A stretch of 64,000 nt of DNA from a virus: IMG/VR virus record IMGVR_UViG_3300033076_000783; one strand, 5' to 3'. The translations under genes and the position numbers were made by a program. This document shows positions 1-53,970 of the stretch, piece by piece. How positions within the stretch are numbered: position 1 is the first letter of the stretch; each line of letters opens with the position of its first letter. Under the pieces are notes generated by a model that saw only the letters and a list, made by a program, of their open reading frames with translations, had not been told where the DNA came from and did no database searches.

Positions 1-58
1 CCTAAGATTATTTTCTTTGAGAAAATAGAGGGTAAATCAACTTCAAACATTTTAAAAT

Positions 59-802
59 ATGACAATAACAGTAATAGGTGAATTGTGTGACGATATCTTC
101 GTTTATGGTGATGCAAAAAGATTAAGTCCCGAAGCACCCGTACCAGTTTTAACACATACACATATTGAAAAGAATTTCGGTATGGCGGGAAATGTGATGG
201 AAAATTTAAAATCATTAGACCCAACATTACGTGTTGTTTTATTTCACCAAGAAACTAAAATAAAAAAAACAAGATACGTTGATGATAAATCAAATCATAT
301 GTTTTTGAGGGTTGATGAGGGTGAAGATAATATTGATACATTTAATTTAAACACATCAAAAACAAATGCAATTAAGAATTCAGATATTGTGATTATTAGT
401 GATTATAATAAAGGATTTTTAGATGTGGAAACATTGATTGAAATTGGTAAAAATTCTAAATTATCTATAATTGACACTAAGAAAAAATTAACTAAAGAAA
501 TTATAGATGCATTTAGTTTTATTAAATTAAATGAAATTGAATATAACACCAACGAATCTATTGCAGATGAAAATAAAGAAAAATTTATCATCACATTAGG
601 TATGAAAGGTGCTAAACACAATAACATTATATATCCATCACCAGCACCAAAACAAACTATGGATGTTAGTGGTGCCGGTGATACTTTCACGGCATCTTTT
701 ATTTTAAAATATAAAGAAACAAATAACATTTCAGAATCAATAATTTTCGCCAATTCAATGGCGGCAATTGTTGTATCAAAAAGAGGAGTAACCACACCAT
801 GA
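59..802 (+). CDS. D-glycero-beta-D-manno-heptose-7-phosphate kinase-like carbohydrate kinase (HldE domain I / RfaE, pfkB family)
   Basis: N-terminus VIGELCDDIFVYGDAKRLSPEAPVPV and NFGMAGNV resemble the HldE kinase domain. GAGDTF nucleotide-binding motif near the C-terminus. 247 aa is shorter than typical. Confidence 0.7.
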   Translation: MTITVIGELCDDIFVYGDAKRLSPEAPVPVLTHTHIEKNFGMAGNVMENLKSLDPTLRVVLFHQETKIKKTRYVDDKSNHMFLRVDEGEDNIDTFNLNTSKTNAIKNSDIVIISDYNKGFLDVETLIEIGKNSKLSIIDTKKKLTKEIIDAFSFIKLNEIEYNTNESIADENKEKFIITLGMKGAKHNNIIYPSPAPKQTMDVSGAGDTFTASFILKYKETNNISESIIFANSMAAIVVSKRGVTTP

Positions 803-1614
803 AAAGAGCAATAATAACCGGAACCAAAGGGTTTATTGGTAAAAATTTATTAGAAGAAATCAAAAATGATTTCCAAGTTTTTGAAATTAACGAAGATATT
901 TTTGACACAGATAATTGGGTGGATGTCTTAAATGGAATTTTGGACGATGTAAATCCTGATGTTATTTTTCATGTAGGTGCGTGTTCAGATACATTAGAAC
1001 AAGATGCGAATTACATGATGACAAGAAATTATGAGTTCACCAAAATATTATCAGAATATACATTAAGTAATGAATGTAAATTAATTTATTCATCATCTGC
1101 GGCAAGTTATGGTACAAACAATCTCTACCCTTCAAATTTATATGGGTGGAGCAAATATGTTGCAGAACAATTTGTTTTACAAAATGGAGGTATTGCATTA
1201 AGATATTTTAATGTCTACGGACCAGGTGAAGAACATAAAGGTAGAATGTCATCAGTTGCGTTACAAATGATAAATAAAGTTAAACAAGGTGAGTTTGTTA
1301 GATTATTTCCTGGCAAACCAAGAAGAGATTTTATTTACATTAAAGATGTTGTAAGTGCAAACATATTTGCATACGAAAATTATTCAGATCTTTCATATAG
1401 TTATTATGATGTAGGGTATGGTGAAGCAAGAAGTTTTGAAGATGTATTAAACATTTTAAATATTCCTTTCACATATTTCGATGAAAAAGATGTTCCTAAA
1501 GGATACCAATATTTTACACAATGTGATAAAAAGAAATGGTTAACAGGTTGGACTCCAAAATATAATTTAGAAACAGGATTAAACGAATATCTAAACAAAT
1601 TAAACAATGCATAA
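799..1614 (+). CDS. ADP-L-glycero-D-manno-heptose 6-epimerase-like NAD-dependent epimerase (HldD/RfaD-like)
   Basis: GTKGFIGKN Rossmann motif. FHVGACSDTLEQDANYMMTRNYEFTKIL and YSSSAASYG blocks resemble HldD. 4-nt overlap with the upstream kinase gene. Confidence 0.7.
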   Translation: MKRAIITGTKGFIGKNLLEEIKNDFQVFEINEDIFDTDNWVDVLNGILDDVNPDVIFHVGACSDTLEQDANYMMTRNYEFTKILSEYTLSNECKLIYSSSAASYGTNNLYPSNLYGWSKYVAEQFVLQNGGIALRYFNVYGPGEEHKGRMSSVALQMINKVKQGEFVRLFPGKPRRDFIYIKDVVSANIFAYENYSDLSYSYYDVGYGEARSFEDVLNILNIPFTYFDEKDVPKGYQYFTQCDKKKWLTGWTPKYNLETGLNEYLNKLNNA

Positions 1615-2620
1615 ATTCACTTATTACTTTGATTCACCCGAGAAAATAACTGAGAACGATAAAATTTTAATTGGTATTGGTGATAGTTTTTGTGCCGGCC
1701 GTGGTGCGTGTTCATTAGAATTGTGGAAAAAATATGATTGGGACATGGACAGAATGTACGGCGAGGGCGGAGTTGAAGTTAATAAATCAAATTATGAAAA
1801 TTCGTGGGTAAATCAACTTTGTAAAAATCATATGCCTGATTGGAAACCTGTTAATTTAGGAATGTCAGGTAAGGGTAATAGATTTGCAGTTAATGAATTA
1901 TTTGTGTCTCCATTACTTAATCTTGAAAAGGCAAAAGAAAAAATCGTGGTGTTTGCCGTTTCAGGTTTTGAAAGATTTGATTTAGTAAATAATTTAGTTA
2001 CCGAAGAACATTTTGTCACACAATGGCCAATTTTTGACGGATGGGGTGATGGTAGAAGGATTGGTTATGCTGAGTTAACTAAAGATATCGATAACAAATC
2101 GATATATGATGAAACGTTTGTCTTATGTGAATTTATTTTAAACATAATTCATTTAACTAATTGGTGTAAATTACATAATGCGAAACTTTTATTAATCAGT
2201 GCATTTACCCCTGAATTAAATGTTGATTATTTTAGAGAAGATTTCACCAAACATTCAGGTAATCCATTTACTGAAAAAGTTGTGTGTGAATTATTAAAAT
2301 TAGTTCCTTGGGGTAAAATAATTAGACCGATGGGTTTCAGTTGTATTACTGATATGTTAATGCATTTGGAAGGTTGGGATGAGTTTATGCCAAACTACGG
2401 ATTTAGAAATATGGACATTAAAACAGTTGGCCCAAACGAATATATGACTAAGTGCCAGCACCCAACTGAAAAGGGTCATAAATTATTAGCAGAAATAATC
2501 TATGAACATATTGTCAATTATGATAATTTGGAAGATGTAAAGATTGAACCGAATTTTAAAAAGTACTATCCCGATATTGATGATAAACCTAAAAATGGTT
2601 CAAACTTCAAATTGATTTAG
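1607..2620 (+). CDS. SGNH/GDSL-like hydrolase family protein (paralog 1 of 4)
   Basis: N-terminal IGIGDSFCAGRG (GDSx block I) and GMSGKGN (block II-like glycine). Coupled to the epimerase gene by an overlapping start. Confidence 0.4.
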   Translation: MHKFTYYFDSPEKITENDKILIGIGDSFCAGRGACSLELWKKYDWDMDRMYGEGGVEVNKSNYENSWVNQLCKNHMPDWKPVNLGMSGKGNRFAVNELFVSPLLNLEKAKEKIVVFAVSGFERFDLVNNLVTEEHFVTQWPIFDGWGDGRRIGYAELTKDIDNKSIYDETFVLCEFILNIIHLTNWCKLHNAKLLLISAFTPELNVDYFREDFTKHSGNPFTEKVVCELLKLVPWGKIIRPMGFSCITDMLMHLEGWDEFMPNYGFRNMDIKTVGPNEYMTKCQHPTEKGHKLLAEIIYEHIVNYDNLEDVKIEPNFKKYYPDIDDKPKNGSNFKLI

Positions 2621-2794
2621 AATATTGCTTTAAATAAACCGTACACCAATGTACATACGGTTCCCATTAAAAGTACAGCAACACCAATTGCAAATAGGTT
2701 TACTGCGAATTCAGCGATGTTTTCTTTATTGATTTTCATATGATTCAAATATAAACAAAAATTTTGATATTACCAAGATTTTGTCTCCAGTATA

Positions 2795-2852
2795 TTCTAG
2801 TATTATTTATTTCTAGTTATCTAGTACTAGTCTAGTTCTAGATAAATACTGG
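2795..2852. repeat. Cluster of 6-7 CTAG-containing short direct/inverted repeats (TCTAGT / ACTAGT / TCTAGA)
   Basis: ttctagtattatttatttctagttatctagtactagtctagttctaga lies at the junction of the + heptose block and the - block, immediately upstream of a bidirectional terminator. Confidence 0.5.
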
Positions 2853-2860
2853 GTAAAAAT

Positions 2861-2887
2861 AAAAAAACCCCTAAAAGGGGTTTCTTT
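2861..2887. terminator. Bidirectional intrinsic terminator
   Basis: aaaaaaaCCCCTaaaAGGGGtttcttt: GC stem flanked by an A-run and a T-run, between convergent genes. Confidence 0.6.
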
Positions 2888-2902
2888 GGTTATAAATGAA
2901 GT

Positions 2903-3106
2903 TTAAAGAAATCTTCTAAAATTTGATTTAATTTTTGAGATTGATTCATTGATTTCAGTTTCCTCAACATCAATTTTTTCTGCGTCGTCATCTTTTAGTT
3001 GATTCATCTCATCAAATGTTTCTTCATTCGCTGTTTCTTGGTAAGAATGTTTTCTTTCCATTATCATTTTCAGCTGGTTCTCAGTAATCTTAATCTTTTT
3101 TGACAT
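2903..3106 (-). CDS. hypothetical acidic protein
   Basis: ORF in the minus-strand block; no recognisable domain. Confidence 0.35.
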   Translation of the reverse strand: MSKKIKITENQLKMIMERKHSYQETANEETFDEMNQLKDDDAEKIDVEETEINESISKIKSNFRRFL

Positions 3107-3141
3107 GTCTATTGTATTTGTATATAAATATCGTTTATTCG

Positions 3142-3612
3142 TTAAAAATCGTAACGATCGTAACTATCATAGTTTCTTCTGTAAATCTCTTGAATGTCGT
3201 CATCAATCCAACTCGGCAAATGTTCCACAAATTTTGTGAAGTCCTTACCATCATAAATAACAACTTCTTCCCCTTCAAAATCTTTAGTGTATCTCAAATG
3301 TTGTGGTATTAATAACCAATAACCGTCACTACCTTCAGGTGGGTCATCATACGTACCCGGTGTATAGTATGGAGTCTCCTCAATCTCATTGTCAAAAGTG
3401 AATTCTAAGGTTTCATCTTTATATGCAATAACAATGTTATCGGAACTATAATCAATTACATCAATATCACTTTGTTTTTTATATTCTTCAACATTATTCA
3501 ATACTGAAGATATGTGTTGAGTTAAATTGGTTATGTTTCTAACCAATCTCTCAGATACTTCTTCGTTTTCAATTAAACGCAAATACTGGTCTTCTTTTAA
3601 GAGAATTCTCAT
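3142..3612 (-). CDS. hypothetical protein
   Basis: 156-aa ORF in coherent minus-strand gene order. Confidence 0.45.
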   Translation of the reverse strand: MRILLKEDQYLRLIENEEVSERLVRNITNLTQHISSVLNNVEEYKKQSDIDVIDYSSDNIVIAYKDETLEFTFDNEIEETPYYTPGTYDDPPEGSDGYWLLIPQHLRYTKDFEGEEVVIYDGKDFTKFVEHLPSWIDDDIQEIYRRNYDSYDRYDF

Positions 3613-3858
3613 AACTATAAATATTAATATTAACCAAAGAGGAACTTATATAAACTTTCGAAGAATAATAGGACTTTTCTTGGTTTTGTCTTAGAAAAGT
3701 GTTATTTATATTAAAAAAACACAATATGTTAAATTTATTTATAGGATTATTTTTAGTTTGTACAAGTTTGGGAGTGAGCTTGTCGAAATTTACAAAACAA
3801 ACATTTATTAGAGGAGAAAGAAAACATGATAGACCATTAACCATTGAACGAGACGTTC

Positions 3859-4077
3859 TTAGATAATTGGTGTGTAGTTGACTTTGTCTTCGTATTCTTT
3901 GATTTTTTCTTCTAGAAACTGCATTCTGTTACTTTCACCCATTAATGAATCATAACGGGTGTATTGTTTTACAAATGACTCAAGTCCATCTCTTTCGATA
4001 TGTTCTTTCATTTGTTCCACTGATGGTAATATACATTGATTAAATCCCATTGTGAAAATATATGAAAATCCTTCCAA
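3859..4077 (-). CDS. hypothetical protein
   Basis: 72-aa ORF, tightly spaced with its neighbours. Confidence 0.35.
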   Translation of the reverse strand: MEGFSYIFTMGFNQCILPSVEQMKEHIERDGLESFVKQYTRYDSLMGESNRMQFLEEKIKEYEDKVNYTPII

Positions 4078-4095
4078 TTACGGAAGGATTTTTAA

Positions 4096-4353
4096 TTATT
4101 CTTGATTTTTCTTATTTGCTAACCAGAAATTTGCGAGTTCTACTCTTGTGTTTTCATCTGACCACGCTTCCCATGAATTTTCACCTTCGGTACCTGCAAT
4201 TTGTAATACCATATCAGGATTAAATTGATCACCTCTAGTTACTTCATGAAAACTATCGTCAACTGCCGAGTTCTTAACTGTAACCACATCAGTTGCGTCA
4301 TCGTATGCAAAAGTAATTGTGTTGTTTGCTGAGTCTAAAATTGTTTGTTCCAT
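4096..4353 (-). CDS. hypothetical protein
   Basis: 85-aa ORF. Confidence 0.35.
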   Translation of the reverse strand: MEQTILDSANNTITFAYDDATDVVTVKNSAVDDSFHEVTRGDQFNPDMVLQIAGTEGENSWEAWSDENTRVELANFWLANKKNQE

Positions 4354-4378
4354 TGTATTAATTTTCTATATAAATATC

Positions 4379-4921
4379 TTATTTGTTATATAACTCCTCG
4401 TTGACCAATTTTATTAAACCGTATTGTCTATCAAACGCATCTTTCTCCCACGGTCTTTGAGTATATTCTATCGAATTAAGTTCCAACACATTTCCTTTCC
4501 ACGTTAATGTGTTATTTGAGTATATTAAATCTTTTGACACGTATTGGTCCATATGAATGACTTCGTGGGATAATACTTCAATTGCCTCACTTCTACCCAA
4601 ATCAATTGTATAAAGATAGAAATTATTATCTTGATATCTGATGTGTGCTTTCAACTCCCCATCAAATTGCCCTTTAGCATTATCACTAAGTGGGAGTAAA
4701 TAAACATCATGCCCCGATAAACCTGATTGTTCCATCGCTATGTTTACAATTGTATCATAGTATGATGGGAATTGACCGTTTACATTTGTAATTATATTAC
4801 TATCAGATAACTCGACTTTATTAAATGGTTTATCCTTAGAAGACTTGATTATAAGGATTGTAATTAGTATTATTACAATAACACCAATAACGACTAAAAT
4901 TACATTCTTTTTCATACCCAT
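4379..4921 (-). CDS. membrane-anchored protein with HExxH motif (putative Zn-metallopeptidase)
   Basis: N-terminal hydrophobic helix (ILVVIGVIVIILITILII). HEVIH motif followed by an acidic residue-rich tail. Confidence 0.35.
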   Translation of the reverse strand: MGMKKNVILVVIGVIVIILITILIIKSSKDKPFNKVELSDSNIITNVNGQFPSYYDTIVNIAMEQSGLSGHDVYLLPLSDNAKGQFDGELKAHIRYQDNNFYLYTIDLGRSEAIEVLSHEVIHMDQYVSKDLIYSNNTLTWKGNVLELNSIEYTQRPWEKDAFDRQYGLIKLVNEELYNK

Positions 4922-4930
4922 AAATATCTA

Positions 4931-5617
4931 ATGAACCCTATCTTCTGTTTTACCGCATATGGTGATGAACATATCAATGAATATAACGTATTGGTTGACA
5001 GTCTTTTAAAGATGAATGACCAAATCAAAGTTATTGTTACCACAGATGATAAAGAGAAGATAGATAATAGGACATATAAGGTCATTGAACTAAAGGAAAC
5101 ATTTAACTACAACCTTAAAAGGGTGTCCATAGAAGAAGCATTCAAAGAAACAGATACGGTAATTTATTTGGATACCGATATTATCTTTAGAAACAATATA
5201 GATTTTCGATTTTTAGACGATTTAAGACACGATTACCTCTACATAGAGGAATTATTCCACTTGGACCATTTCAGGGACAAGAAGGGGTCATTAAACTATC
5301 TTGGTGACTACATAACCACATTATCAAATATCCATCCTGAGTTATATTTAATTAATGAGGGGATGTTTATACTAAAGACCAATAGGGGATTGGAATTTAC
5401 AAGACATTGGAAGGAGATTGATGAACAAACTCGTGGGGTACAGAAGATGAATGACCAACATTACGGTGCAATGGAGGGGTTTATTATGTGGATATCGATG
5501 ATAAAGTCATCAATTGAACCATATATAACAAAAAAAGGTGATAATATATGGGAATTTTACAGAAATATGGTCCATACGGGTCAAGATAAACAGAAATACA
5601 ATAAAACATTAATATGA
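4931..5617 (+). CDS. putative nucleotide-sugar glycosyltransferase (DxD motif, GT8-like)
   Basis: YLDTDIIF block resembles the DxD motif of retaining glycosyltransferases. Weak; no second signature recognised. Confidence 0.25.
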   Translation: MNPIFCFTAYGDEHINEYNVLVDSLLKMNDQIKVIVTTDDKEKIDNRTYKVIELKETFNYNLKRVSIEEAFKETDTVIYLDTDIIFRNNIDFRFLDDLRHDYLYIEELFHLDHFRDKKGSLNYLGDYITTLSNIHPELYLINEGMFILKTNRGLEFTRHWKEIDEQTRGVQKMNDQHYGAMEGFIMWISMIKSSIEPYITKKGDNIWEFYRNMVHTGQDKQKYNKTLI

Positions 5618-6237
5618 GAACAGTTTGGGTGTTTGGTGATTCATTTTCTGTCGATTTTGACAAGAATCCAATCAAAAATTTCTATGATTACGGACAATAT
5701 AAGGGATATTACCCAAAAACATGGGGTAAATTATTATCTGAACACTTAAATTGTGACTACAAGAACTTTGCAAGGGGTGGATGGGACAATTATTCCATTC
5801 TTCAGACATTTTGTGATAATATTCACAATTTTGGTCCCGATGATTTGGTTTTTGTGGGGTGGTCACCAGAGGAGAGAATAAGACTTGTGGGTGGTCATGG
5901 TGGATGGGTTCCATTTAATTCAGCTCCACCGAATCCTGTATATGAGATTGACCCCAATATTGTTGCCACTTTATTGGTTTCAAGAACGGAAAAGACCTCT
6001 CACGGTTATCAGGCACATAAGATTGTTCGTGAGGAGGTATATTCATGGGAGAATATGATAAGACATTCACTAAAAGATAGATTTGTCCATATATGGAGAT
6101 GGTATAGTGAAGATATATTACCGAGACACTATGATACCATTCAAAAAGAAACGAACGGACAGATTAATGACACACACTGGTCGGAGAAGGGACATCTTCA
6201 ATACGTCACAGATTTAATCTCTGAATTAAACCTTTAA
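5614..6237 (+). CDS. SGNH/GDSL-like hydrolase family protein (paralog 2)
   Basis: VWVFGDSFSVDFD N-terminal block and the KTWGKLLSEHL...ARGGWDN block are shared with the ORFs at 35282 and 36052. Confidence 0.45.
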   Translation: MRTVWVFGDSFSVDFDKNPIKNFYDYGQYKGYYPKTWGKLLSEHLNCDYKNFARGGWDNYSILQTFCDNIHNFGPDDLVFVGWSPEERIRLVGGHGGWVPFNSAPPNPVYEIDPNIVATLLVSRTEKTSHGYQAHKIVREEVYSWENMIRHSLKDRFVHIWRWYSEDILPRHYDTIQKETNGQINDTHWSEKGHLQYVTDLISELNL

Positions 6238-6390
6238 ATTTTCCCGACCCGGCCCCGGCGGGGGTAACATTCATCAACTCCGGCGTCGGAGGTTTATAAA
6301 CAAAGAAGGGATGAGGTAGCGAATCCCCATCCCCAACGGGATATGTAACTAGTCCCGGTCCTAAGCAGGGTCTTCAAACCCTGGTTCTCT
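6238..6390. terminator. GC-rich hairpin cluster between convergent genes (bidirectional terminators / structured element)
   Basis: Hairpins CTCCGgcgtCGGAG-gttt, GGGATG-14nt-CATCCC and CAGGGTttgaagACCCTG in an otherwise AT-rich genome. Confidence 0.4.
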
Positions 6391-6732
6391 TTAATACTGT
6401 GAAGTATATGTAATGTTAGTTAAAGATTCACCGTCTTTATAGAACTGATATTTCTGATCCTTAGTGAGAACTTTATCCATGGCCATAAACAAGGCATTAA
6501 ATGTTTTCACATCATAGGAGGTTTTACCGGTATTCTTTTTCTCAAGGAGTTTCTGTGCCATAGGATATATGGTCTTAGAGTTAAACATAAGACTCTTCTT
6601 AAGTTGGTCCACTGGTGTGTTCTGGAACTCGTTACTGTCACCTTTAAGAATGTGGTTTAGGAAACCCAACAGGGTTTGTTCTCCCACATTAAGTTTAGGT
6701 GACTGTTCGTTAAGTATATCTAATAATTTCAT
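6391..6732 (-). CDS. hypothetical protein
   Basis: 113-aa ORF. Confidence 0.4.
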   Translation of the reverse strand: MKLLDILNEQSPKLNVGEQTLLGFLNHILKGDSNEFQNTPVDQLKKSLMFNSKTIYPMAQKLLEKKNTGKTSYDVKTFNALFMAMDKVLTKDQKYQFYKDGESLTNITYTSQY

Positions 6733-6738
6733 ATAGTA

Positions 6739-7335
6739 TTAGTAACCTTGTCCAAGGTTTTGTCCATCAATTTTCTTTGCTCTTGACCCTAAGTCCTGTA
6801 TGTTTGTGAACGATTTTTTCATTGGAGGAAGTTCTCCACTTTTAATTCCACCATTTAAATCAATCAAATGTCCGATAATAGATATAGGGACATATGGATA
6901 TACACTGTTATATGGATCATTTGTACCCATTGAACCGTCATCATTATAAACAACCGTTTGTTCAACGTATTTTAACAAATTTTCAGGAAGTACGGTATCC
7001 TTACTTGGGTAACCCAATTCCATCTTTGTATAAGGACCTTCATCGTTTCTTGGTTCACAATATGCTGTTCTACTTGCTTGAATGGATATACTTCCACCAT
7101 TGTTGAATACTACTCTCTTATATAAAGGTTTAAACTTAGAAACTTCTTCAGGTTCTTTATAGTCAGGGTCATAATCAGGATTAGGTTCATAGAAATCTTG
7201 TCCTGTTGGAGATGTTACTCTATTAAACTTGTTCCAAGTTGATTGTTCACTTAATGGTTTCTTATATCCGTGAGACTTATGTTGTTCCATAATTTGTTGT
7301 CTCTCTTCATCAGTTAGATTAAAGTTCTTATACAT
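6739..7335 (-). CDS. hypothetical protein
   Basis: 198-aa ORF. Confidence 0.45.
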   Translation of the reverse strand: MYKNFNLTDEERQQIMEQHKSHGYKKPLSEQSTWNKFNRVTSPTGQDFYEPNPDYDPDYKEPEEVSKFKPLYKRVVFNNGGSISIQASRTAYCEPRNDEGPYTKMELGYPSKDTVLPENLLKYVEQTVVYNDDGSMGTNDPYNSVYPYVPISIIGHLIDLNGGIKSGELPPMKKSFTNIQDLGSRAKKIDGQNLGQGY

Positions 7336-7406: not shown

Positions 7407-7955
7407 TTATACTTCTTCTTCCAAACGTTCAAGTAATGGTTGAATAACTTCGTCCCAATAACTACCATCAGGATTCTCCTGTTCAAACTCTTCCCACGTT
7501 ATTTCAGGTTCATCTTCGGATTCATCCGTATTACCGATACCATAAGACGCAAATGCTCCACACGGACTAAACGTCTCATCATAGTATGTTCCTTTTGCGT
7601 ATGAGTAGTCCTCATCATTTGGGTTAACATAATCTTCCCCTTCACTTAGTTGAGATAGTTTCTCTACCATACGTTCAATTAAATCTTTAGGGGGATACCA
7701 CGCACTTTCAAATGATATAGTATATCTGTCGTCATCTTTGTACCAGTCATTTAATCTAATCCATTTAGACCCCACGATGTCGATGATTCCAGTAATGGTT
7801 CCGTCGGGTTGGGTGTCAGATTCCATTCTGAATGAATTACCGAACGCGTCTGTGATGTTTTCCGAACCCTTGATTCTTTCGACCTCGGATTCTAACCAGT
7901 TAAGGGCCTTCTCAGAGGAGAAGAATTCCACTTTTGTTGTACAGTTGTTTGCCAT
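7407..7955 (-). CDS. hypothetical highly acidic protein
   Basis: 182 aa, rich in D/E, first gene of the minus-strand block. Confidence 0.45.
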   Translation of the reverse strand: MANNCTTKVEFFSSEKALNWLESEVERIKGSENITDAFGNSFRMESDTQPDGTITGIIDIVGSKWIRLNDWYKDDDRYTISFESAWYPPKDLIERMVEKLSQLSEGEDYVNPNDEDYSYAKGTYYDETFSPCGAFASYGIGNTDESEDEPEITWEEFEQENPDGSYWDEVIQPLLERLEEEV

Positions 7956-8346
7956 AGTAAATGTTATTAAAGTTTTACAAAGGAAATATACACATAATAG
8001 TCGAATTTCCCAAAAAATTCTGGAAAATTTTTTTTTCAGTTTTACCCAAAAAAAGTCGATTTTTGGAAAAATTTCCGGAAAAATTTCAGTTAGAGCATTG
8101 TCCCCCCTATACAGACGTCAAAATACCCCCTATATAAGGGGGGATACGGGAAGGGGGGAGGGGGTACCCTACATAGGGGGTGGGCCGTTCTTTATTCGAT
8201 CTGTTGAGGAAGGTTCACCAAACGTTAATTGTTAAAGTTTAGTTAATAGGTAAAAAAAAATTAAAAAAAAGTATAAAAATATTTGGATTATATATTTCTA
8301 TACCCTATCTTTGATGTATTAAATAACACATAAACATTTAAACATT
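7956..8346. promoter_or_regulatory. Divergent intergenic control region with G-tract cluster and short direct repeats
   Basis: Divergent promoters on both strands. Repeated GGAAAAATTT units. CCCCCTatataAGGGGG hairpin. GGGGGG/GGGGG/GGGGG/GGG tracts. A half-copy of the palindrome core (GGGCCGTTCTTTATT). Confidence 0.5.
8283..8314 (+). promoter_or_regulatory. Bacteroidetes-type promoter (TTTG -33 / TAnnTTTG -7)
   Basis: TTTGG ...20 nt... TATCTTTG upstream of the 8347 gene. Confidence 0.5.
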
Positions 8347-8880
8347 ATGAAAAATTCAGTAAACACAAATGAAATCAACGTTACCAAAGATGAATTGTTA
8401 TCAATCCTTATGGAAGTTGAAAAACCAACCTTTACAAACATTATGTACAAAGTAAAGGTAAAGATGAACAAAACAAACAATCCTTATTTGGATAAGGTAT
8501 TCAAAACTACCAAAGGAAATTTCTTTATCGGTGGAAGTTATGAAGATATGGTAAACGTTCAAATTGACAAACAAGGTTTGGAAATTGAATTTGAAAGTCA
8601 AGAATGTTCAGTAGGGGAAAAAATTTCAAAGTGTGTTCAGTTCAACGAAAACCACAACAAACATTACTTACAATATTTTACCTACAAAAATTCATATCAT
8701 TCAACCGAGTATGAATTTGAGGGAAGAAACATTGACCGAGAATTGTTTAAGTCCTTTGAGGTTAAGAAGTCCGAAAGTTCAAGACAACCACAAGACAACA
8801 AAGTAAAACCACAATCTTTGACAATAGACAATATTAAGAAGATTAGTTTATTCGGTAAAAGATATAACGTAGTAGGGTAA
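8347..8880 (+). CDS. hypothetical protein
   Basis: 177-aa ORF after a consensus promoter. Confidence 0.5.
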   Translation: MKNSVNTNEINVTKDELLSILMEVEKPTFTNIMYKVKVKMNKTNNPYLDKVFKTTKGNFFIGGSYEDMVNVQIDKQGLEIEFESQECSVGEKISKCVQFNENHNKHYLQYFTYKNSYHSTEYEFEGRNIDRELFKSFEVKKSESSRQPQDNKVKPQSLTIDNIKKISLFGKRYNVVG

Positions 8881-8959
8881 TCCTACTACATTTTCCCCCA
8901 CGAAAGTCCCTTACGAAAGTGAGGGATTTTTTTTTGACCACAGACCATCTCCGTCCCGT

Positions 8960-9074
8960 CTACAATAGTGAACGGCTCCGATAGACCATCAGGACGAGAA
9001 ATCCTTCAGGGAATAATGAACGGCCCCGAAGATTGTAATACACCATCGAGCCATTCTTATTTCCCACGGGGACG
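8960..9074. repeat. Complex imperfect palindrome (intergenic repeat family, copy A)
   Basis: AATAGTGAACGGCTCC, GAATAATGAACGGCCCC and CGAGCCATTCTTATTT half-sites plus complementary outer arms CCGTCCCGTC / CACGGGGACG. Confidence 0.7.
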
Positions 9075-9191
9075 TAACCTTACATCTACTTCATTTACGT
9101 TAAGAAAATTTTAACAAAATAAATTTGGTCATATAAAAGAATTAGTATTATATTTGTCATACAAATTCACTAACAAATAAACACAAGTATT

Positions 9192-9380
9192 ATGAAAGAG
9201 TTAATCAATCTTTATTTAGACATTTTCAATTCAATGGAAACATTTGAAAAAGTATTAGTAATCTTTTGGTCATTATGTGTGGTCATGTTTTATGTGTCAT
9301 TCCTTATGATTATAAAGAACGTAATACACGACACTATCAAATCATTCTTTGTAAAGAAACCTCAACCCCAACGATTTTAG
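9192..9380 (+). CDS. small membrane protein
   Basis: 62 aa with a central hydrophobic helix. Confidence 0.4.
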   Translation: MKELINLYLDIFNSMETFEKVLVIFWSLCVVMFYVSFLMIIKNVIHDTIKSFFVKKPQPQRF

Positions 9381-9471
9381 TTGTCATCAGTCGGTTAATA
9401 TGGGTAAAGTCCTCATCAGTAATGGTGGGGATTTTTTTTTGGTAAGAAGAAATGGTTTCAGCCCCTGATCC

Positions 9472-9585
9472 AGAAAATAATGAAGGGCTCGGAGCCGTTC
9501 TTTATTACCATCCGGATCAGCTTGGACCGGGTTCATTTATGAGCCCTTCATTATTACCATCCGGATCAGCTTGGACGAGGGTGGA
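9472..9585. repeat. Intergenic palindrome family, compound copy B with 21-bp direct repeat
   Basis: AATAATGAAGGGCTCGGAGCCGTTCTTTATT and TTCATTTATGAGCCCTTCATTATT, each followed by ACCATCCGGATCAGCTTGGAC. Confidence 0.75.
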
Positions 9586-9614
9586 AAAAATATCCTAAAA
9601 AAAATCAAAATATA

Positions 9615-9646
9615 TTTGGTGGAATAGAAAAGTTGTTATATCTTTG
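9615..9646 (+). promoter_or_regulatory. Bacteroidetes-type promoter
   Basis: TTTGG ...20 nt... TATCTTTG; consensus shared with more than 12 other intergenic regions. Confidence 0.55.
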
Positions 9647-9668
9647 TATCAACAAAATAAATAATGAT

Positions 9669-9884
9669 ATGGAAAAATTAAGAGTTAAAAAATCAGATTT
9701 CAAATCCGACCTCTCATTTAACGAGTGGTGTGAGAAGTACAATTTGGGTAAGGGTTATGTACAACCTACTCAATATTTTCAAGGACACAAAAATTGGTCA
9801 ATGGAACCTATCGGAGTGGCGAAATACATTCACGAAAGTCCTATTGAAAGATTATTTAGAGTTATAAAAAGAAAATTAAAATAA
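9669..9884 (+). CDS. hypothetical protein
   Basis: ORF-track start at 9633 lies in the promoter; first plausible ATG (MEKLRVKK) is at 9669. Confidence 0.45.
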   Translation: MEKLRVKKSDFKSDLSFNEWCEKYNLGKGYVQPTQYFQGHKNWSMEPIGVAKYIHESPIERLFRVIKRKLK

Positions 9885-9888
9885 TATT

Positions 9889-10194
9889 ATGTTAGTAAAA
9901 TTAACTTATTACGGAACAGACCGACCTACATTAGTCAATATGGACAATGTGGAAAGTATCTACCAAGTGTTTGACAAGTCGTCGAAAAGATATTCGACCA
10001 AGATATGTTTTAGTGGTAACGAAAGTTTCATCAATGTTGAGGAAGATTTACAGACGATATTAAGATTGGCTCAAGAAGTCAGTATGGGTAAGTTTCAATC
10101 ACACGATTGGGAAACACCAAGTATAGAAGAAAGAATGGCGGCGTCATTCCAACGTAAATACGATACTCAATTTAATGATACATTTAATTATTAA
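9889..10194 (+). CDS. hypothetical protein
   Basis: 101-aa ORF. Confidence 0.45.
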   Translation: MLVKLTYYGTDRPTLVNMDNVESIYQVFDKSSKRYSTKICFSGNESFINVEEDLQTILRLAQEVSMGKFQSHDWETPSIEERMAASFQRKYDTQFNDTFNY

Positions 10195-10384
10195 TCCTAT
10201 GAAAGAGATGTTAAGTGTTTTTAAAGAACAATGGAACGAAGACCCAAAAGAAATGATTGGTGGGATATTGTTTATGATTGGTTGGTGTGGTATGACATAT
10301 TTCCTACTTTGGTTTGGTGCGACGTTTTGTTACGATATGTGATGTGTTTTGTGTTTATAGTTTAATTGTTAGTTCCCCTAAGAC

Positions 10385-16732: not shown

Positions 16733-17578
16733 ATGGAAAGAATTAAAGAAGTACTGAACACAACTGGTTTAAACTGGAATGTTCGCAGTGAAGAATTAAC
16801 TACTGAAAGTGGAATCATTTTAAGTGGTTACAAAGCAATTGTTCGTGATGACACTAATACTGCATTATCAGTAATGAGTGACACGTATGAACCGTTTCAA
16901 AATTATGACTTGGTCGAGTTGCTAGACAAGGTGTCAAATATGACAGGCTTGGAAGTAACAAGAGGTGGGACATTTAAAGATGGTGCTCGCGTGTATGTAC
17001 AATTAAAATCGGATAACCTTAAGTTGGGTGACGATAGAATCGAGGGATATTTGACTGGCATCAATTCATTCGATGGTTCAACGAGTTTAGCATTCGGACC
17101 TAGTAACATTACAATCAGTTGTCAAAATTCATTCTTCTCAGCATTTAGAGAAATGAAAACAAAAATTCGTCACACCAAAAACATGATGATTAAAGTGGAC
17201 GAAGTATGTAGAAGTTTAGAGAATGCATTAGTGGAAGAAAAGAAAATGTTTGATAGTATCGTTCAATTAAGTGAAATCCGTTATGATGATGTAATGAAGG
17301 ATAATGTTATTCGTAAGTTATTCGACATTAAGAAAGATGTGGATTTAAAAGATGTTGATTCTATTCATACGACTACACGAAATAGACTTAGTAGATTTTA
17401 TGTTGACCTTAACGGAGAGTTGCAACAAAAGGGAGATAATATGTGGGGTTTATTTAGTGGAGTAACAAAGTACACCACACATTCATTGAGTAAAGGCAAT
17501 AGTCTTGAAACTAAAATGATGGGGACTTATGGCAAGAGAGAAAGAGAAATCTTTAGTGATATGTTAGAGTTAGTGTAA
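16733..17578 (+). CDS. DUF932 / phage-plasmid-like protein (TIGR03299-like)
   Basis: GLNWNV, RDDTNTALSVMSDTYEPFQN, GARVYVQLK and SFDGSTS blocks resemble the DUF932 family. Confidence 0.5.
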   Translation: MERIKEVLNTTGLNWNVRSEELTTESGIILSGYKAIVRDDTNTALSVMSDTYEPFQNYDLVELLDKVSNMTGLEVTRGGTFKDGARVYVQLKSDNLKLGDDRIEGYLTGINSFDGSTSLAFGPSNITISCQNSFFSAFREMKTKIRHTKNMMIKVDEVCRSLENALVEEKKMFDSIVQLSEIRYDDVMKDNVIRKLFDIKKDVDLKDVDSIHTTTRNRLSRFYVDLNGELQQKGDNMWGLFSGVTKYTTHSLSKGNSLETKMMGTYGKREREIFSDMLELV

Positions 17579-20168: not shown

Positions 20169-20927
20169 ATGATTTACACAAACAAAGCAACCGCAAAAAG
20201 ATTAACAGGTATTAACTACTTAGGATCCGTTAATCTAACGACCAAACATCAGAAGGCGTACAAGTACGATGAGTTAACCTACAGTTTGTACCTGGCACCT
20301 GCAAAAATGAGTGGCTACGAAGTTTGTCCCATGAGAACAAAAGAATGTACAAAGTTATGTTTGAATGAATCGGGGATGAACACCATGAACATGAACGGTG
20401 ACAAAATTAATCAGTCACGTATAAAGAAAACTAAATTGTTTTTCGAACACCGTGAATTCTTTGTCAATTGGTTAATCGATGAAATTTATTCAGCTAAACT
20501 TAAGGCAGAAAAATTAGGATACCAATTCAGTGTTCGTCTGAATAATACATCAGATATTCCCCCGACATTATTTAGTGTGAACTATAAAGGAGAACAAAGA
20601 AACATCCTTGAAATATTTCCAATGGTTCAATTCTACGATTACACAAAAGTGTATAACAGAATCGAGTTAACAAAGAAGTATAAAAACTACGATTTAACAT
20701 TTAGTTACAGTGGCGAGAACTTAGACCATTGCCACCAAGCATTGAATAACAATGTGAGAGTTGCCGTTGTATTCAAGAAACTACCTACAGAGTTTTGGGG
20801 TCGTAAAGTTATCGATGGTGATGCATATGACATGAGATACAAAGATGATAAGGATGTTATTGTAGGTTTGAAGTTCAAACGTGTGAGAAACAAATTAGCA
20901 AGTACAAGTAAGTTTGTAATACAGTAA
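20169..20927 (+). CDS. hypothetical protein
   Basis: 252-aa ORF after a TTTGG...TATCTTTG promoter. Confidence 0.5.
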   Translation: MIYTNKATAKRLTGINYLGSVNLTTKHQKAYKYDELTYSLYLAPAKMSGYEVCPMRTKECTKLCLNESGMNTMNMNGDKINQSRIKKTKLFFEHREFFVNWLIDEIYSAKLKAEKLGYQFSVRLNNTSDIPPTLFSVNYKGEQRNILEIFPMVQFYDYTKVYNRIELTKKYKNYDLTFSYSGENLDHCHQALNNNVRVAVVFKKLPTEFWGRKVIDGDAYDMRYKDDKDVIVGLKFKRVRNKLASTSKFVIQ

Positions 20928-23523: not shown

Positions 23524-24099
23524 ATGAATATCATCCATCTACAGAAAGAGGTAATGGTCAGTGACCCAACCTACAGCGAACCTACGTGGTGTCAAATCAA
23601 ATTGAAGACAGTTAAACCAGGTGAATACTATTCATTCTGTAAAACCCACGACACGGGTTTTGCTGGTGTGAGGAATTCAATGTTATTAGTTGTCCATAAG
23701 GACCATATCAATGACGTCCTACAGTGGAAGAAACATCAGGGTGAAGTGGGTGTTGACTCGGGTCAAGCAGGAATCTTTTCCTATGAGACCTACAGGAAGG
23801 ATGGATTGGAGATGGAAGTTCCGACGATCGGATACGACGGTAGGAATTTTGACTGGCTCGATTTACCTGGTGAAGTTATGCCAGGTGATGATTGGTACAA
23901 GAAGATGTGTAAGTTCACTTTAGCTGAATTGTCATATGGATCATATGATAATGGTATTGTATGTAGAAGTGGATTCGGGGACGGTGGATATGAACTATTC
24001 ACGGCGTCTAAGAGTAGAAAGATCATTGCAATGGCCATTGACTTCGGTGTGGAGGATGGACCATATATTGAATTTGACTGGTATAAAGAATTAGTATAA
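23524..24099 (+). CDS. hypothetical protein
   Basis: 191-aa ORF. Confidence 0.5.
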   Translation: MNIIHLQKEVMVSDPTYSEPTWCQIKLKTVKPGEYYSFCKTHDTGFAGVRNSMLLVVHKDHINDVLQWKKHQGEVGVDSGQAGIFSYETYRKDGLEMEVPTIGYDGRNFDWLDLPGEVMPGDDWYKKMCKFTLAELSYGSYDNGIVCRSGFGDGGYELFTASKSRKIIAMAIDFGVEDGPYIEFDWYKELV

Positions 24100-24134
24100 A
24101 CTTCAGGGTCCGATCATGATCACACTGTAGAATT

Positions 24135-24344
24135 ATGACCGGCCCATTAACCTTCACAGATCCTATGAAAAAATTATTAAAGAACCTCGAGTACTATTGG
24201 GACTACGTCGTAGTATATCTCATGTGTAATCCTCATTATCTCCACAGGTACCATCTATGGATGTACAAGAAGTGGGGTGAAAGATACTGCACCAAGGAAG
24301 ATCTTATGAATCACATCGAGTCTGATCAGGATCCTGAATTATGA
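24135..24344 (+). CDS. hypothetical small protein whose start and stop codons lie inside palindrome-repeat cores
   Basis: ATG is within ATTATGACCGGCCC (24128-24151). Stop TGA is within AATTATGAGTGGCCC (24336-). Confidence 0.3.
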   Translation: MTGPLTFTDPMKKLLKNLEYYWDYVVVYLMCNPHYLHRYHLWMYKKWGERYCTKEDLMNHIESDQDPEL

Positions 24345-24404
24345 GTGGCCCACACTCACCTTCGCAGATCACCTGAACCGATTATGACCGGCCCATTACT
24401 AACA
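24336..24404. repeat. Intergenic palindrome family, two tandem half-copies
   Basis: TGAATTATGAGTGGCCCAC...CGATTATGACCGGCCCATTACTAAC. Confidence 0.55.
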
Positions 24405-24420
24405 TTTAAAACATGACCAC

Positions 24421-24840
24421 ATGTATATACAAACATTGAAACCGTCCCAATGGACAAACCTTGGATATCTTATAGTAGGTATTGTCTTATCACCATTAGC
24501 GGGGGTATCCTTATTAATCCCAATATGGAAATACATAGAGACCTACTGTACCAAGTACGAATTCTACGAGGACCGAATAATATACCGAAGAGGAGTCTTC
24601 AGAGTAGTAACCGACGAGATCCTATTATACAGGGTAAAGGCAATCAACTTAGACGAACCCTTCCTATACAGATTGGTAAGTATTGCCAACATGAACCTAA
24701 TCACCTCAGACAGGTTCGTGGGTAGTATCACCCTAAAGGCCATACCCGTGGGAATAGAATTCAGAAACATCCTAAGGGAGATGGTAGAACACAACCGTAA
24801 TATCAAAGGTGTCAAGGAATTCGACCTATATGATCTGTAG
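24421..24840 (+). CDS. bPH_2 (bacterial PH-like, YdbS/YdbT-type) membrane protein
   Basis: Two N-terminal hydrophobic helices followed by YEDRIIYRRGVFRVVTDEILLYRVKAINLDEPFLYRL, typical of bPH_2. Confidence 0.45.
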   Translation: MYIQTLKPSQWTNLGYLIVGIVLSPLAGVSLLIPIWKYIETYCTKYEFYEDRIIYRRGVFRVVTDEILLYRVKAINLDEPFLYRLVSIANMNLITSDRFVGSITLKAIPVGIEFRNILREMVEHNRNIKGVKEFDLYDL

Positions 24841-24842
24841 TT

Positions 24843-24870
24843 CAATTATGAACGGCCTGTGTATTACACC
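24843..24870. repeat. Intergenic palindrome family, half-copy with GTATTAC
   Basis: TTCAATTATGAACGGCCtgtgtattacacc. Confidence 0.5.
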
Positions 24871-24950
24871 AAAAAATATTTTACGTCAGATTTTTTTTTA
24901 CGGAAGATAAAGGTTATATTTTAATATAAACTTAATAAATAATAAAAATT

Positions 24951-25142
24951 ATGGCAACAAAAACAAACTCAGGTTACACCAACCTTGGTAACAACATCTA
25001 CCAAGTGTCAACAGGTGTAGGTAATCGTTACCGTGTACGTGTATCGATTAATGGAACTCGTTACGATGAGTACTTCACAAGTAAGACTAAGGCTATGAAG
25101 TTCCGTAAAGAACTTTACAACCGTCGTAAGGCAACAGTTTAA
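24951..25142 (+). CDS. small AP2/integrase-type DNA-binding-domain-like protein
   Basis: YRVRVSINGTRYDEYFTSKTKAMKFRKEL resembles the AP2/Arm DNA-binding fold; 63 aa. Confidence 0.3.
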   Translation: MATKTNSGYTNLGNNIYQVSTGVGNRYRVRVSINGTRYDEYFTSKTKAMKFRKELYNRRKATV

Positions 25143-25929
25143 TATACCGTTGTTTTCCACAACATTAAGGTCCGGACCAGTAAGGGGGTTCGGACCTTTT
25201 TTGTTTAACCCTTACGTGTATTACTTAAACAAACCTAATCATTAAAGACCGGCTTCGGGCCAGTCTTATTTGTATTACGAATAGTTGTTACAACAACTAA
25301 ATTATGACCGGCCCATTTACTCTATTACGGGCCTCCCCTATCGGGTCGGCCCTTCATCCCGTATTACATCCCATATGTATAACATCCTATTGCGGGGGAC
25401 CTTCGGTCCCCCTTCATCCCGTATGTATGACACCGTATATGTAAGACATAAATAGGATTATTCTAAGGGACCTTAAAAAAATCCCTAAGGGTTTTTCTAA
25501 AAACCATAGTACTATTTCTAGAACACCCTGAAGGGCCGAACGAAGTGAGGCCCGTATAATGAAATAACTAATATATATGTATATAATATAAATGTATTAC
25601 ATGTATACTGTATGACATTATAATGATATAATCTGGATATTTTTTAAAACTAAGTCGTGATTCAGACAAGGGACAATCCCCCACTAATTAACACTTTCTC
25701 CCACTTTGTTTCAAAAATATGGCTGGTGTATATTAGAACGGGAATTTTGACTTGATCTGACAAAAAGTCTATATATAAAATGATCACGATAAAATATGTC
25801 AAAAAGACATACTAATTTTATGGTGTTTTTAGGGTTAAAAACGGGAATAAATTAGGGGTGTTTTTGTGGGTAATCTGGTACCCAATAGAGTATACGGGCC
25901 TCCCTTCGGTCGGCCCTTCAGGGGAGAAT
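25143..25929. other. 790-bp noncoding island between convergent gene blocks, with UUCG-loop GC hairpins and iterated CCTTCATCCCGTAT / GTATTAC motifs
   Basis: GGGGGACCttcgGTCCCCC (perfect hairpin). GGGCCTCCCttcggTCGGCCC and GGGCCTCCCctatcGGGTCGGCCC. CCCTTCATCCCGTAT twice. AT-rich TGTAT/ATACA mirror repeats. No ORF of 60 aa or more. Confidence 0.6.
25169..25202 (+). terminator. Intrinsic terminator
   Basis: GGTCCGgaccagtaagggggttCGGACC+TTTTTT. Confidence 0.55.
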
Positions 25930-26277
25930 TTAGGATAGATTATCTATTATAATAGGTTCATCACAGTGGGGACAATCCTTTAGTACAAGTAAATTATTCA
26001 TATGAAAACTCCACTTCTCTACTTGTGGTTTTTCCATGCTGGAGAGTTTTCTGAACCCATCCTGATTATCTACTTCACCATATATGTCATAGTACTTTCC
26101 CTTATACCTTGTGATGATATGATTCCCATTTGTGTATGGTATACAACCTTTATACATCTTACTTAAAAGGAGGTGAAACTTATAACAACCTCCTTTTGTA
26201 TAGATGTGATGAATATACCTATCAGTATTCCTTAGTTCATCTATGAAGTTTAGAATATTCATATTAATCCTTCCCAA
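25930..26277 (-). CDS. hypothetical protein
   Basis: 115-aa ORF, last gene of the long minus-strand block. Confidence 0.45.
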   Translation of the reverse strand: MGRINMNILNFIDELRNTDRYIHHIYTKGGCYKFHLLLSKMYKGCIPYTNGNHIITRYKGKYYDIYGEVDNQDGFRKLSSMEKPQVEKWSFHMNNLLVLKDCPHCDEPIIIDNLS

Positions 26278-29674: not shown

Positions 29675-29737
29675 AAAAAAATCGTATATGAAAATAATAT
29701 ACGATTTTATTTTGATAAAAACAAGTAGGCTCGAACG

Positions 29738-53784: not shown

Positions 53785-53970
53785 TTAAGATATATCTTCT
53801 TCCCAAGAATAAATGTCAGTTTCGATTGGATTTGATACGCCAGGTATATATTCGGGATTCTTTACAGACTTCCATTTCATACCACACCTTTTACACACAC
53901 ATTTTGACGGCATCCACCCAAAGTTGTAAGAATACTTGTGTCCGAATACTTTACAAATCAACTTCTTCAT
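53785..53970 (-). CDS. small zinc-ribbon protein
   Basis: CxxC...CVCKRC pattern. Confidence 0.35.
   Translation of the reverse strand: MKKLICKVFGHKYSYNFGWMPSKCVCKRCGMKWKSVKNPEYIPGVSNPIETDIYSWEEDIS

Follow-up and report, generated by a model that had tools for sequence, protein, structure and literature searches.

Genetic organization of the locus

The 64,000-nucleotide viral DNA IMGVR_UViG_3300033076_000783, the whole of which is referred to as the window, begins inside a plus-strand operon that encodes a PfkB-type kinase, an HldD-like epimerase, and a stand-alone protein of the SGNH/GDSL fold, hereafter ORF3 (Table 1). The G+C content of the window is about 32%, and its short open reading frames (ORFs) are tightly packed. 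Every ORF was found at the place given in a preliminary description of this DNA. The same description considered the kinase and epimerase genes to be translationally coupled to the SGNH-like ORF, and the gene overlaps agree with this: the kinase and epimerase genes share an ATGA at 799-802, and the epimerase gene and ORF3 share 8 nucleotides (nt) at 1607-1614. Upstream of the kinase gene, frame 1 at positions 1-81 translates to PKIIFFEKIEGKSTSNILKYDNNSNR followed by a stop codon. This peptide is the same as the C-terminus of a 133-amino acid (aa) protein encoded at 3454-3855 of L004, one of six near-identical metagenome contigs (L004-L009) that encode an identical kinase. The nucleotidyltransferase gene lies directly upstream of the kinase gene in all six, its 3' end covering the kinase start by 23 nt, and a complete cupin gene precedes it in all five contigs that reach far enough. 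The adenylyltransferase expected just upstream of the window is therefore present, its last 26 codons being window positions 1-81 and its whole gene being contained in L004-L009. GmhA and GmhB were expected there as well; the genes found in that place are the cupin gene and, further upstream, a gene for a GH19 endolysin with a peptidoglycan-binding domain.

The transcription unit appears to run in the order cupin, transferase, kinase, epimerase, and ORF3, with adjacent genes overlapping by 1 to 23 nt along the whole operon, and the region most likely corresponds to the 3' four-fifths of this five-gene operon of the phage. Between the endolysin gene and the ATG of the cupin gene are a terminator-like hairpin and an 11/12 promoter-like site. 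The -10 hexamer of this site (L004 3036-3071) ends 6 nt 5' of the ATG; if the site is genuine, the mRNA of the operon would have almost no leader, or none at all. Beyond ORF3 is a hairpin at 2861-2887, which on the minus strand has a stem of 12 pairs with a T run after it and on the plus strand an 8-pair stem at 2865-2883. Six small minus-strand ORFs lie between this hairpin and a plus-strand pair composed of a glycosyltransferase (GT)-like gene and a 207-aa ORF, which share an ATGA at 5614-5617. The hairpin at 6307-6334 marks the boundary after this pair, and a further plus-strand hairpin is found at 6366-6383. Sigma-70 promoter-like sites number 41 in window positions 1-7000, no excess over the 40.5 expected from shuffled sequence, and the individual sites are suggestive as positions only. 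Scans of the left region for tRNA genes, Rfam families, and tandem repeats gave no match, and PADLOC recognized no defence system among ten proteins of the region. No GenBank phage was matched by window positions 1-6500 in megablast or by ORF3 and two large window ORFs in tblastn.

Table 1. Positions of the operon genes, nearby features, and related cyanophage modules (window coordinates unless a contig or phage is named)
Feature	Position	Strand	Remark
Cupin gene, 127 aa	L004 3071-3454		just upstream of the window
HldC/HldE-domain-II-like nucleotidyltransferase gene, 3' end	1-81	+	last 26 codons and stop; runs off the window start
HldA/HldE-domain-I-like PfkB kinase, 247 aa	59-802	+	
SDR epimerase, HldD-like (ADP-glyceromanno-heptose 6-epimerase), 271 aa	799-1614	+	
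ORF3, stand-alone SGNH/GDSL-fold protein, 337 aa	1607-2620	+	last gene of the operon
Bidirectional terminator-like hairpin	2861-2887		between the operon and convergent minus-strand genes; consensus match only
GT-A fold glycosyltransferase-like protein, GT6/GT8-like, 228 aa	4931-5617	+	
SGNH-like protein, 207 aa	5614-6237	+	coupled to the GT-like gene
Terminator-like hairpin	6307-6334	-	of the convergent minus-strand gene 6391-6732; 10 pairs (6 GC), then T-rich tail
Cyanophage module, P-SSM2	PSSM2_309-313		
Cyanophage module, P-TIM68	gp191-195		
Cyanophage module, S-SM2	SSM2_200-207		

Similarity of the three enzymes to heptose-specific families

The kinase matches PfkB in Pfam (E = 4.1e-15). 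Its top NCBIfam model is TIGR02198 (rfaE_dom_I) with an E value of 1e-36, followed by ribokinase as the next family at 2e-11. The closest structure in the PDB is Burkholderia HldA (4e84), to which the kinase motifs SPEAPVPV (residue 23) and GAGD (residues 205-208) are both aligned.

The epimerase has TIGR02197 (heptose_epim) as its top model (1.3e-58), with GalE at 1.4e-13. Its first four PDB matches are all ADP-heptose 6-epimerases (1eq2, 2x6t, 3sxp, and 4ej0; 4e-34 to 3e-30), and the fifth is a UDP-glucose 4-epimerase (4e-13). At the N-terminus, the NADP-binding region is shorter by about 16 residues, and a GxxGxxG motif is located at residues 8-14. With positions counted along the 1eq2 alignment, Tyr140, Lys144, and Lys178 of the E. 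coli enzyme correspond to Y115, K119, and K147, respectively. K147, the equivalent of the HldD-specific second base, is placed within an HKGxMxSV motif. An apparent deletion in the epimerase gene of L004 turned out to be a run of N in the scaffold and is no true variant.

The transferase, of the cytidylyltransferase fold, is matched best by TIGR02199 (rfaE_dom_II; 3.6e-29), with TagD at 2.4e-17. The best PDB match is 5x9q (2.7e-16), which was deposited as a 'putative cytidylyltransferase' and which we take to be B. pseudomallei HldC. The segment NGTFDVLHIGH, which fits NGxFDxLHxGH and contains the HxGH motif, aligns to this structure.

All three enzymes thus score best against heptose-specific NCBIfam models, by 12 to 45 orders of magnitude. 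The kinase and the epimerase had been described as HldE domain-I-like and HldD-like, with placement in generic sugar-kinase and UDP-glucose-epimerase families as the outcome that would speak against heptose; the searches put both enzymes in heptose families, with TIGR02198, TIGR02197, and HldA and HldD structures as the best matches. As judged from their sequences, the kinase, transferase, and epimerase are divergent relatives of the bacterial enzymes and not certified equivalogs. We propose, at a probability of roughly 60%, that the operon makes nucleotide-activated heptose (ADP-heptose) in the infected cell and that it is the counterpart of the cyanomyovirus module formed by T4-GC 304/305/307/308.

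Cupin and counterpart modules of other phages

The cupin contains complete metal-binding motifs, as read in its sequence. It matches Cupin_2 in Pfam (1.9e-7) and WbuC-like proteins (E = 0.003), and has a weak match to D-lyxose isomerase (E = 0.006). The cupin accompanies the kinase in 31 of 31 GenBank phage records, and a GmhA query, 97% identical to an E. coli-derived record, found no homologue in any cyanophage record. On account of these two results we favour the cupin as the isomerase: it may be a candidate non-orthologous sedoheptulose-7-phosphate isomerase, in the cyanophages too. Cupin-type mannose-6-phosphate isomerases catalyse a reaction that is the shorter analogue of the isomerization of the seven-carbon sedoheptulose-7-phosphate.

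The cyanophage clusters for lipopolysaccharide (LPS), first called 'LPS genes' in 2005 (PMC1079782), contain the same four protein families, namely a nucleotidyltransferase (T4-GC 304), a carbohydrate kinase (T4-GC 305), a cupin (T4-GC 307), and a nucleotide-sugar epimerase (T4-GC 308), the co-occurrence of which was noted by Sullivan et al. 2010 (PMC3037559). Heptose genes have also been listed for SynMITS9220M01 (PMC7378029), and rfaE for pelagimyophages (PMC7029224). The preliminary description thus overrated the novelty of the locus: some 30 cyanophage records carry annotations for these four genes, and the set has been discussed before (PMC1079782, PMC3037559, PMC7378029). Identities between the window's phage and the cyanophages are 34-45% for the kinase (against 'putative carbohydrate kinase' T4-GC 305 in some 30 records), 43-50% for the cupin, 38-40% for the transferase, and 28-32% for the epimerase. 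The cyanophage kinases are as compact as the window kinase. The kinase gene is clustered with those of the transferase and an epimerase in S-SM2, P-TIM68, and P-SSM2; the cupin, which is annotated as 'cysteine dioxygenase' in these phages and is 44-48% identical to that of the window's phage, belongs to the cluster in two of them (P-TIM68 and P-SSM2), and in S-SM2 its gene lies about 7 kb beyond it. The cyanophage modules are embedded in larger sugar clusters, have an additional small HAD-like protein, and lack an ORF3-type SGNH protein, whereas the window's phage, an uncultivated lineage apart from the cyanophages and without DNA match to GenBank phages, has one compact operon that ends in an SGNH protein. 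SSM2_199 and SSM2_201, two hypothetical proteins encoded in the S-SM2 module, were considered as ORF3 relatives and proved unrelated. By these comparisons, the heptose module of the window belongs to a known phage kind with predicted functions, and its lineage and its SGNH partner are new.

The small HAD-like protein of the cyanophages (about 104-114 aa) is annotated as 'phosphoheptose isomerase' and is encoded at 7719-8063 in L003 (P-SSM2 PSSM2_311), 11972-12283 in L001, and 8269-8607 in L002. It matches HAD models (TIGR01689 at 1e-8, the BT0820 family, and HAD-IIIA) and not GmhA, so that it is probably a misnamed GmhB-like 7-phosphatase of the module. Searching for it gave no match in the loci of either the window's phage or a sister lineage. 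A HAD_SAK_2 domain protein is encoded in the window at 53970-54563 (minus strand), 50 kb from the operon.

The sister lineage (L010-L014, 326-kb contigs included) has an operon of cupin, transferase, kinase, and ORF3 homologue. The epimerase gene is missing there, and of the two lineages only the window's phage has it. The constant partner in this clade is ORF3, not the epimerase. Amino acid identities between the window and the sister lineage are 87-88% for the cupin, 45-46% for the transferase, 68% for the kinase, and 62-66% for ORF3, a pattern by which the operon would be a mosaic between two phage lineages.

Such modules could also be cargo, that is, bacterial LPS genes captured recently and without adaptive role, and 'stuffer DNA' has been raised as a possibility for the cyanophage LPS clusters (PMC3037559). 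The region lies among accessory genes of no known function, and our literature search returned neither a functional study nor a demonstrated function for any phage heptose module of the PfkB/HldD type. Against cargo stand the intact and translationally coupled ORFs with their conserved catalytic residues, and the conservation of the kinase, which shares 68% identity between phage lineages and has the same sequence (100% identity) in the six independent metagenome contigs. The kinase also looks phage-specific: it matches phrog_8133 at 5.9e-68 and is 45% identical to the S-SM2 protein and only 25% identical to Salmonella RfaE, which places it by sequence in a phage-specific clade. We regard the cargo explanation as extremely improbable.

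The ORF3 family

ORF3 itself has no match in Pfam, NCBIfam, or PHROG. Its relatives number 205 in a set of 5.8 billion proteins, on contigs of up to 326 kb, and clustering at 50% identity leaves 146 representatives. We aligned 60 sequences of the family and found the SGNH blocks conserved: G25, S27, and H285 are present in all 60, N83, G85, and G88 in 58, and N91 in 56. R123 (60/60) and D125 (54/60) are additionally conserved. The position two residues before the histidine (283) is Cys in 56 sequences and Asp in four, giving the motif [C/D]-x-H-P. The catalytic Asp three residues before the histidine (DxxH) is not kept, position 282 being variable. Weak Lipase_GDSL matches occur in 10 of the 60 relatives, and a profile of the family gives marginal SGNH matches only (E = 0.025) among PDB sequences.

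The AlphaFold2 (AF2) model of ORF3 has a mean predicted local distance difference test score (pLDDT) of 89.3 and a predicted template modelling score (pTM) of 0.88. The top 25 PDB structures in Foldseek are all GDSL/SGNH structures, with probabilities of 0.98-1.00 and target-normalised template modelling (TM) scores of up to 0.64. Among them are the Nostoc GDSL lipase 1z8h, acetyl xylan esterases, acyloxyacyl hydrolase (AOAH), and TesA. Searching BFVD with the model gave named matches that are nearly all SGNH hydrolases, the rest being mostly uncharacterised. The conserved blocks and the structural matches together confirm the earlier assignment of the ORF at 1607-2620 as SGNH-like.

ORF3 shares the fold and the Ser/Gly/Asn/His blocks with SGNH esterases and O-acetyltransferases, such as acetyl xylan esterases, PatB, AOAH, and the SGNH domains of phage tail fibres. 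It differs from them in having about 130 residues beyond the minimal fold, in the replacement of D-x-x-H by [C/D]-x-H, and in R123 and D125 as extra invariant residues. It also has neither a signal peptide nor a tail-fibre domain, is restricted to viruses, and occurs within sugar-nucleotide operons. The family is essentially virus-only, with 49 loci in IMG/VR, a single match among 185,579 species genomes (located on a 2.5-kb contig of a metagenome-assembled genome), and none in GenBank phages.

ORF3 adjoins heptose genes in the window's clade only. Its distant homologues (at most 50% identity; 44 IMG/VR loci) are generally away from heptose genes, and only in L018 is a kinase gene found, 2.5 kb off. 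The neighbours in L021, L035, L040, and L059 encode radical-SAM proteins, SDR epimerases/dehydratases, DegT aminotransferases, and 2-oxoglutarate (2OG) oxygenases or B12-radical-SAM proteins, with the SDR, DegT, and 2OG-oxygenase or B12-radical-SAM genes occurring in L021, L040, and L059. In these four loci and in L026, the ORF3 homologue follows a conserved pair of proteins, one weakly radical-SAM-like (about 440-485 aa; absent from L021) and one of about 380-450 aa without known function. L026 has three tandem paralogs of the family at 7867-10369 on the minus strand, which start with GGCSFTWGQG. These neighbourhoods suggest the testable idea that phage sugar-nucleotide modules repeatedly have a member of this family as their partner. 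Because the family accompanies unrelated sugar-nucleotide modules in other phages, we infer a tailoring role: ORF3 would add or remove an O-acyl group on the heptose or its glycan, and would not carry out a step of nucleotide-sugar synthesis.

Another role for ORF3 would be to supply a missing step by removing the 7-phosphate from heptose-1,7-bisphosphate, in the slot of the cyanophage HAD phosphatase. The window's clade lacks the 114-aa HAD-like protein (TIGR01689) and has ORF3 as its extra conserved gene, as this role would predict. However, SGNH enzymes are carboxyl-ester or thioester hydrolases or acyltransferases, no phosphatase is among the structural matches of ORF3, and the family is also present in clusters without the kinase. 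In E. coli, moreover, other phosphatases partly make up for a loss of GmhB, which likewise counts against the need for such a role. We consider a phosphatase function of ORF3 very unlikely; acyl tailoring is the function we prefer.

Downstream gene pair

A DxD glycosyltransferase-like ORF about 2.3 kb downstream had been noted in the preliminary description, and its identification holds: D81-T82-D83 is invariant in 4/4 sequences, and the AF2 model (pLDDT 83.4) matches GT-A structures in Foldseek at about E = 1e-7. These structures are retaining GT-A enzymes of the GT6 and GT8 families, namely alpha-1,3-GalT, GTA/GTB, BoGT6a (TM scores 0.60/0.58), and LgtC. The Pfam match to Glyco_transf_8 (E = 0.0012, 18.9 bits) is below the gathering score of 24.3. 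Only three homologues were found among the 5.8 billion proteins, and the gene is absent from the sister phages, which keep the heptose module. ADP-heptose-dependent heptosyltransferases of the GT9 WaaC/WaaF type have a GT-B fold, and the only GT of the region has a GT-A fold. Since known heptosyltransferases are GT-B enzymes, the fold gives no support for a heptose donor. The GT has a weak tie to the heptose genes, given the GT-A fold, the three relatives only, and the absence from sister phages.

The GT gene starts 9 nt from the start of a divergent minus-strand gene (4379-4921). This gene encodes a 180-aa protein with a hydrophobic segment at its N-terminus and an HEVIH (HExxH) motif, which has weak PHROG matches of no known function and is absent from the sister phages.

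The 207-aa ORF coupled to the GT gene was also aligned with its family (21 sequences). G8 D9 S10 F11, N51, G55 G56, N59, and D186-x-H188 are conserved in 19-21 of them, and the spacing of D-x-H before the histidine is the same as in ORF3. A weak Pfam match is present in one of the 21 members. Aligning the two family profiles with hhalign gave a probability of 79.6% (E = 1.5e-5) over 92 columns, which cover blocks I-III of the N-terminal half only. BLASTP between ORF3 and the 207-aa ORF was not significant, and neither was the ORF3 family profile against the single 207-aa sequence. In the sister loci L010-L012, the heptose module is followed 2.5 to 4 kb further downstream by paralogs of the 207-aa ORF. 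The earlier proposal of a second SGNH paralog is thus supported only in part, by motifs and by the family profile match and not by pairwise BLASTP; the 207-aa ORF is a probable remote paralog of ORF3. PDB sequence searches with the GT, the 207-aa family, and the ORF at 55683-56369 returned nothing.

Remainder of the window

The cumulative GC skew of the window peaks at about 24000-26000. Long ORFs are on the plus strand from 8 to 24 kb and on the minus strand from 26 to 64 kb, and because they change strand there, transcription converges at about 24000-26000. Recognizable genes at 16733-17578, 20169-20927, 28271-30472, 36769-38178, and 41205-42119 encode DUF932, GP88, an HNH endonuclease beside a T5orf172/MUG113 protein, an FG-GAP repeat protein, and an SPFH/Band 7 protein. 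Two adjacent large minus-strand ORFs at 60083-63386 (502 and 621 aa) each have a C-terminal PcfJ-like domain. No recognizable virion structural family was found among the window ORFs scanned. A C5-cytosine DNA methyltransferase is encoded at 59033-60022 on the minus strand, and a second methyltransferase ORF, apparently N-terminal only, at 56360-56974 on the same strand, where it overlaps the 228-aa minus-strand ORF 55683-56369.

The cytosine methyltransferases bear on the possibility that the sugar is destined for DNA hypermodification, in which heptose would be placed on hydroxymethylated cytosines as a protection against host nucleases, and the GT-A and SGNH proteins would build or tailor the DNA glycan. 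The only experimentally shown phage use of heptose that we found in the literature is of this kind: the contig 53 cluster, which has a HAD/APH bifunctional kinase, a cytidylyltransferase, and a GT-B DNA glycosyltransferase with an adjacent C5-methyltransferase and 5mYOX, yields mono- and di-heptosyl-5-methylcytosine in E. coli, and GT8-like GT-A enzymes extend DNA-linked glycans (bioRxiv 10.1101/2023.12.21.572611). Phage arabinosyl-DNA pathways follow the same logic of isomerase, kinase, HAD phosphatase, and nucleotidyltransferase (PMC13326640). Like contig 53, the window's phage would reach activated heptose through a cytidylyltransferase-fold enzyme; unlike it, the phage has a PfkB-type kinase, an HldD-like epimerase, and SGNH proteins, and 5mYOX and GT-B were not seen. 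Intact DNA-hypermodification pathways are usually clustered (bioRxiv 10.1101/2023.12.21.572611), whereas the methyltransferase genes are more than 50 kb from the operon. No 5mYOX/TET protein, thymidylate-synthase-like hydroxymethylase, or GT-B DNA glycosyltransferase was detected among the 30 window ORFs scanned with Pfam, a scan that took in a minority of the small ORFs, and the GT is not kept alongside the heptose genes in sister phages. Taken together, we judge DNA to be an unlikely destination of the sugar.

Predicted pathway

ADP-heptose synthesis, the function that we prefer for the operon, would proceed in five steps. First, sedoheptulose-7-phosphate would be converted to D-glycero-D-manno-heptose-7-phosphate by the metal cupin or by a host GmhA. 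Second, the kinase, as its family and conserved motifs suggest, would phosphorylate C1. Third, the 7-phosphate would be removed by a host phosphatase or by a further phage phosphatase, the operon having no GmhB-like gene; as the window's clade is without the HAD-like protein, a host phosphatase is the simplest assumption. Fourth, the nucleotidyltransferase would form ADP-D,D-heptose. Fifth, the epimerase, in which the two catalytic bases of E. coli HldD are conserved, would yield ADP-L-glycero-beta-D-manno-heptose. ORF3, with a Ser-His active site, would then serve in O-acyl tailoring of the heptose or of a glycan derived from it. Compared with the bacterial pathway to ADP-L-glycero-beta-D-manno-heptose (GmhA, HldE or HldA plus HldC, GmhB, and HldD), homologues of the kinase, adenylyltransferase, and epimerase are present with intact catalytic motifs. 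The differences are that a metal cupin takes the place of SIS-type GmhA, that the kinase and transferase are separate and shortened, and that HAD-type GmhB and a nearby GT9 heptosyltransferase are lacking.

The sugar most likely ends up in a glycoconjugate made under the direction of the phage, with the host envelope or the virion as its putative site. We favour a glycoconjugate over DNA because the structural neighbours of ORF3 include enzymes that act on O-acetylated carbohydrates (along with lipases and thioesterases), because the GT has an LPS-type GT-A fold, and because DNA-base-modifying genes are not adjacent to the operon.

Several observations weigh against ADP-heptose synthesis by this operon. 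The scores of the kinase (126.7 versus 345 bits), epimerase (198.6 versus 274.6 bits), and transferase (101.5 versus 181.5 bits) are all below the curated equivalog cutoffs of TIGR02198, TIGR02197, and TIGR02199, respectively. The kinase, with 247 aa against about 315 aa for the full domain, falls some 60 residues short of HldA or HldE domain I. The isomerase and phosphatase steps have no classical gene: SIS-type GmhA is found neither in nor next to the operon, where the upstream genes encode the cupin and the endolysin, and HAD-type GmhB is not found in the operon. The case for the cupin as the isomerase consists of its co-occurrence with the kinase and the weak D-lyxose isomerase match. The sister phages do without the epimerase, and L,D-heptose is therefore no requirement of the module. 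ORF3 has Cys, not Asp, two residues ahead of the catalytic His, and its chemistry is a prediction. Neither a GT9-type heptosyltransferase nor another heptose acceptor system was identified near the operon. The DNA examined covers 64 kb, and the complete genome could, to judge from the longest sister-lineage contig, extend to about 326 kb.

Some of these observations also fit enzymes that act on a sugar other than heptose, for instance a hexose, a pentose, or another phosphosugar, in which case the likeness to HldA, HldC, and HldD would reflect ancestry. The scores under the cutoffs, the short kinase, and the absence of GmhA and GmhB from the operon are all in line with this, as is the generic family assignment of the cupin, and phage arabinose pathways reuse the same enzyme logic (PMC13326640). 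On the other hand, three separate enzymes each match a heptose family best and by large margins, the epimerase retains the HldD-specific Lys178, and the kinase retains the N-terminal SPEAPVPV of HldA/HldE. We therefore hold a non-heptose substrate to be improbable. Similarly doubtful is a self-sufficient and partly non-orthologous version of the heptose pathway, in which the cupin would replace GmhA, the SGNH protein would perform a step without bacterial counterpart (7-dephosphorylation or O-acyl tailoring), and the product would go to phage DNA or virion proteins and not to host LPS.

Annotations of heptose genes in marine cyanophages go back twenty years, and the locus shows that the set also circulates in unrelated large uncultivated phages. 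ADP-heptose is an innate-immune agonist, and other phage clusters make heptosylated DNA; for these two reasons, knowing the acceptor of the heptose would be of wider interest. The arrangement in one compact operon makes the locus a clean object for expression and biochemistry. The ideas that can be tested on it are that the cupin is an isomerase, that the cyanophage 'phosphoheptose isomerase' is a phosphatase, and that the SGNH family is a partner of sugar modules.

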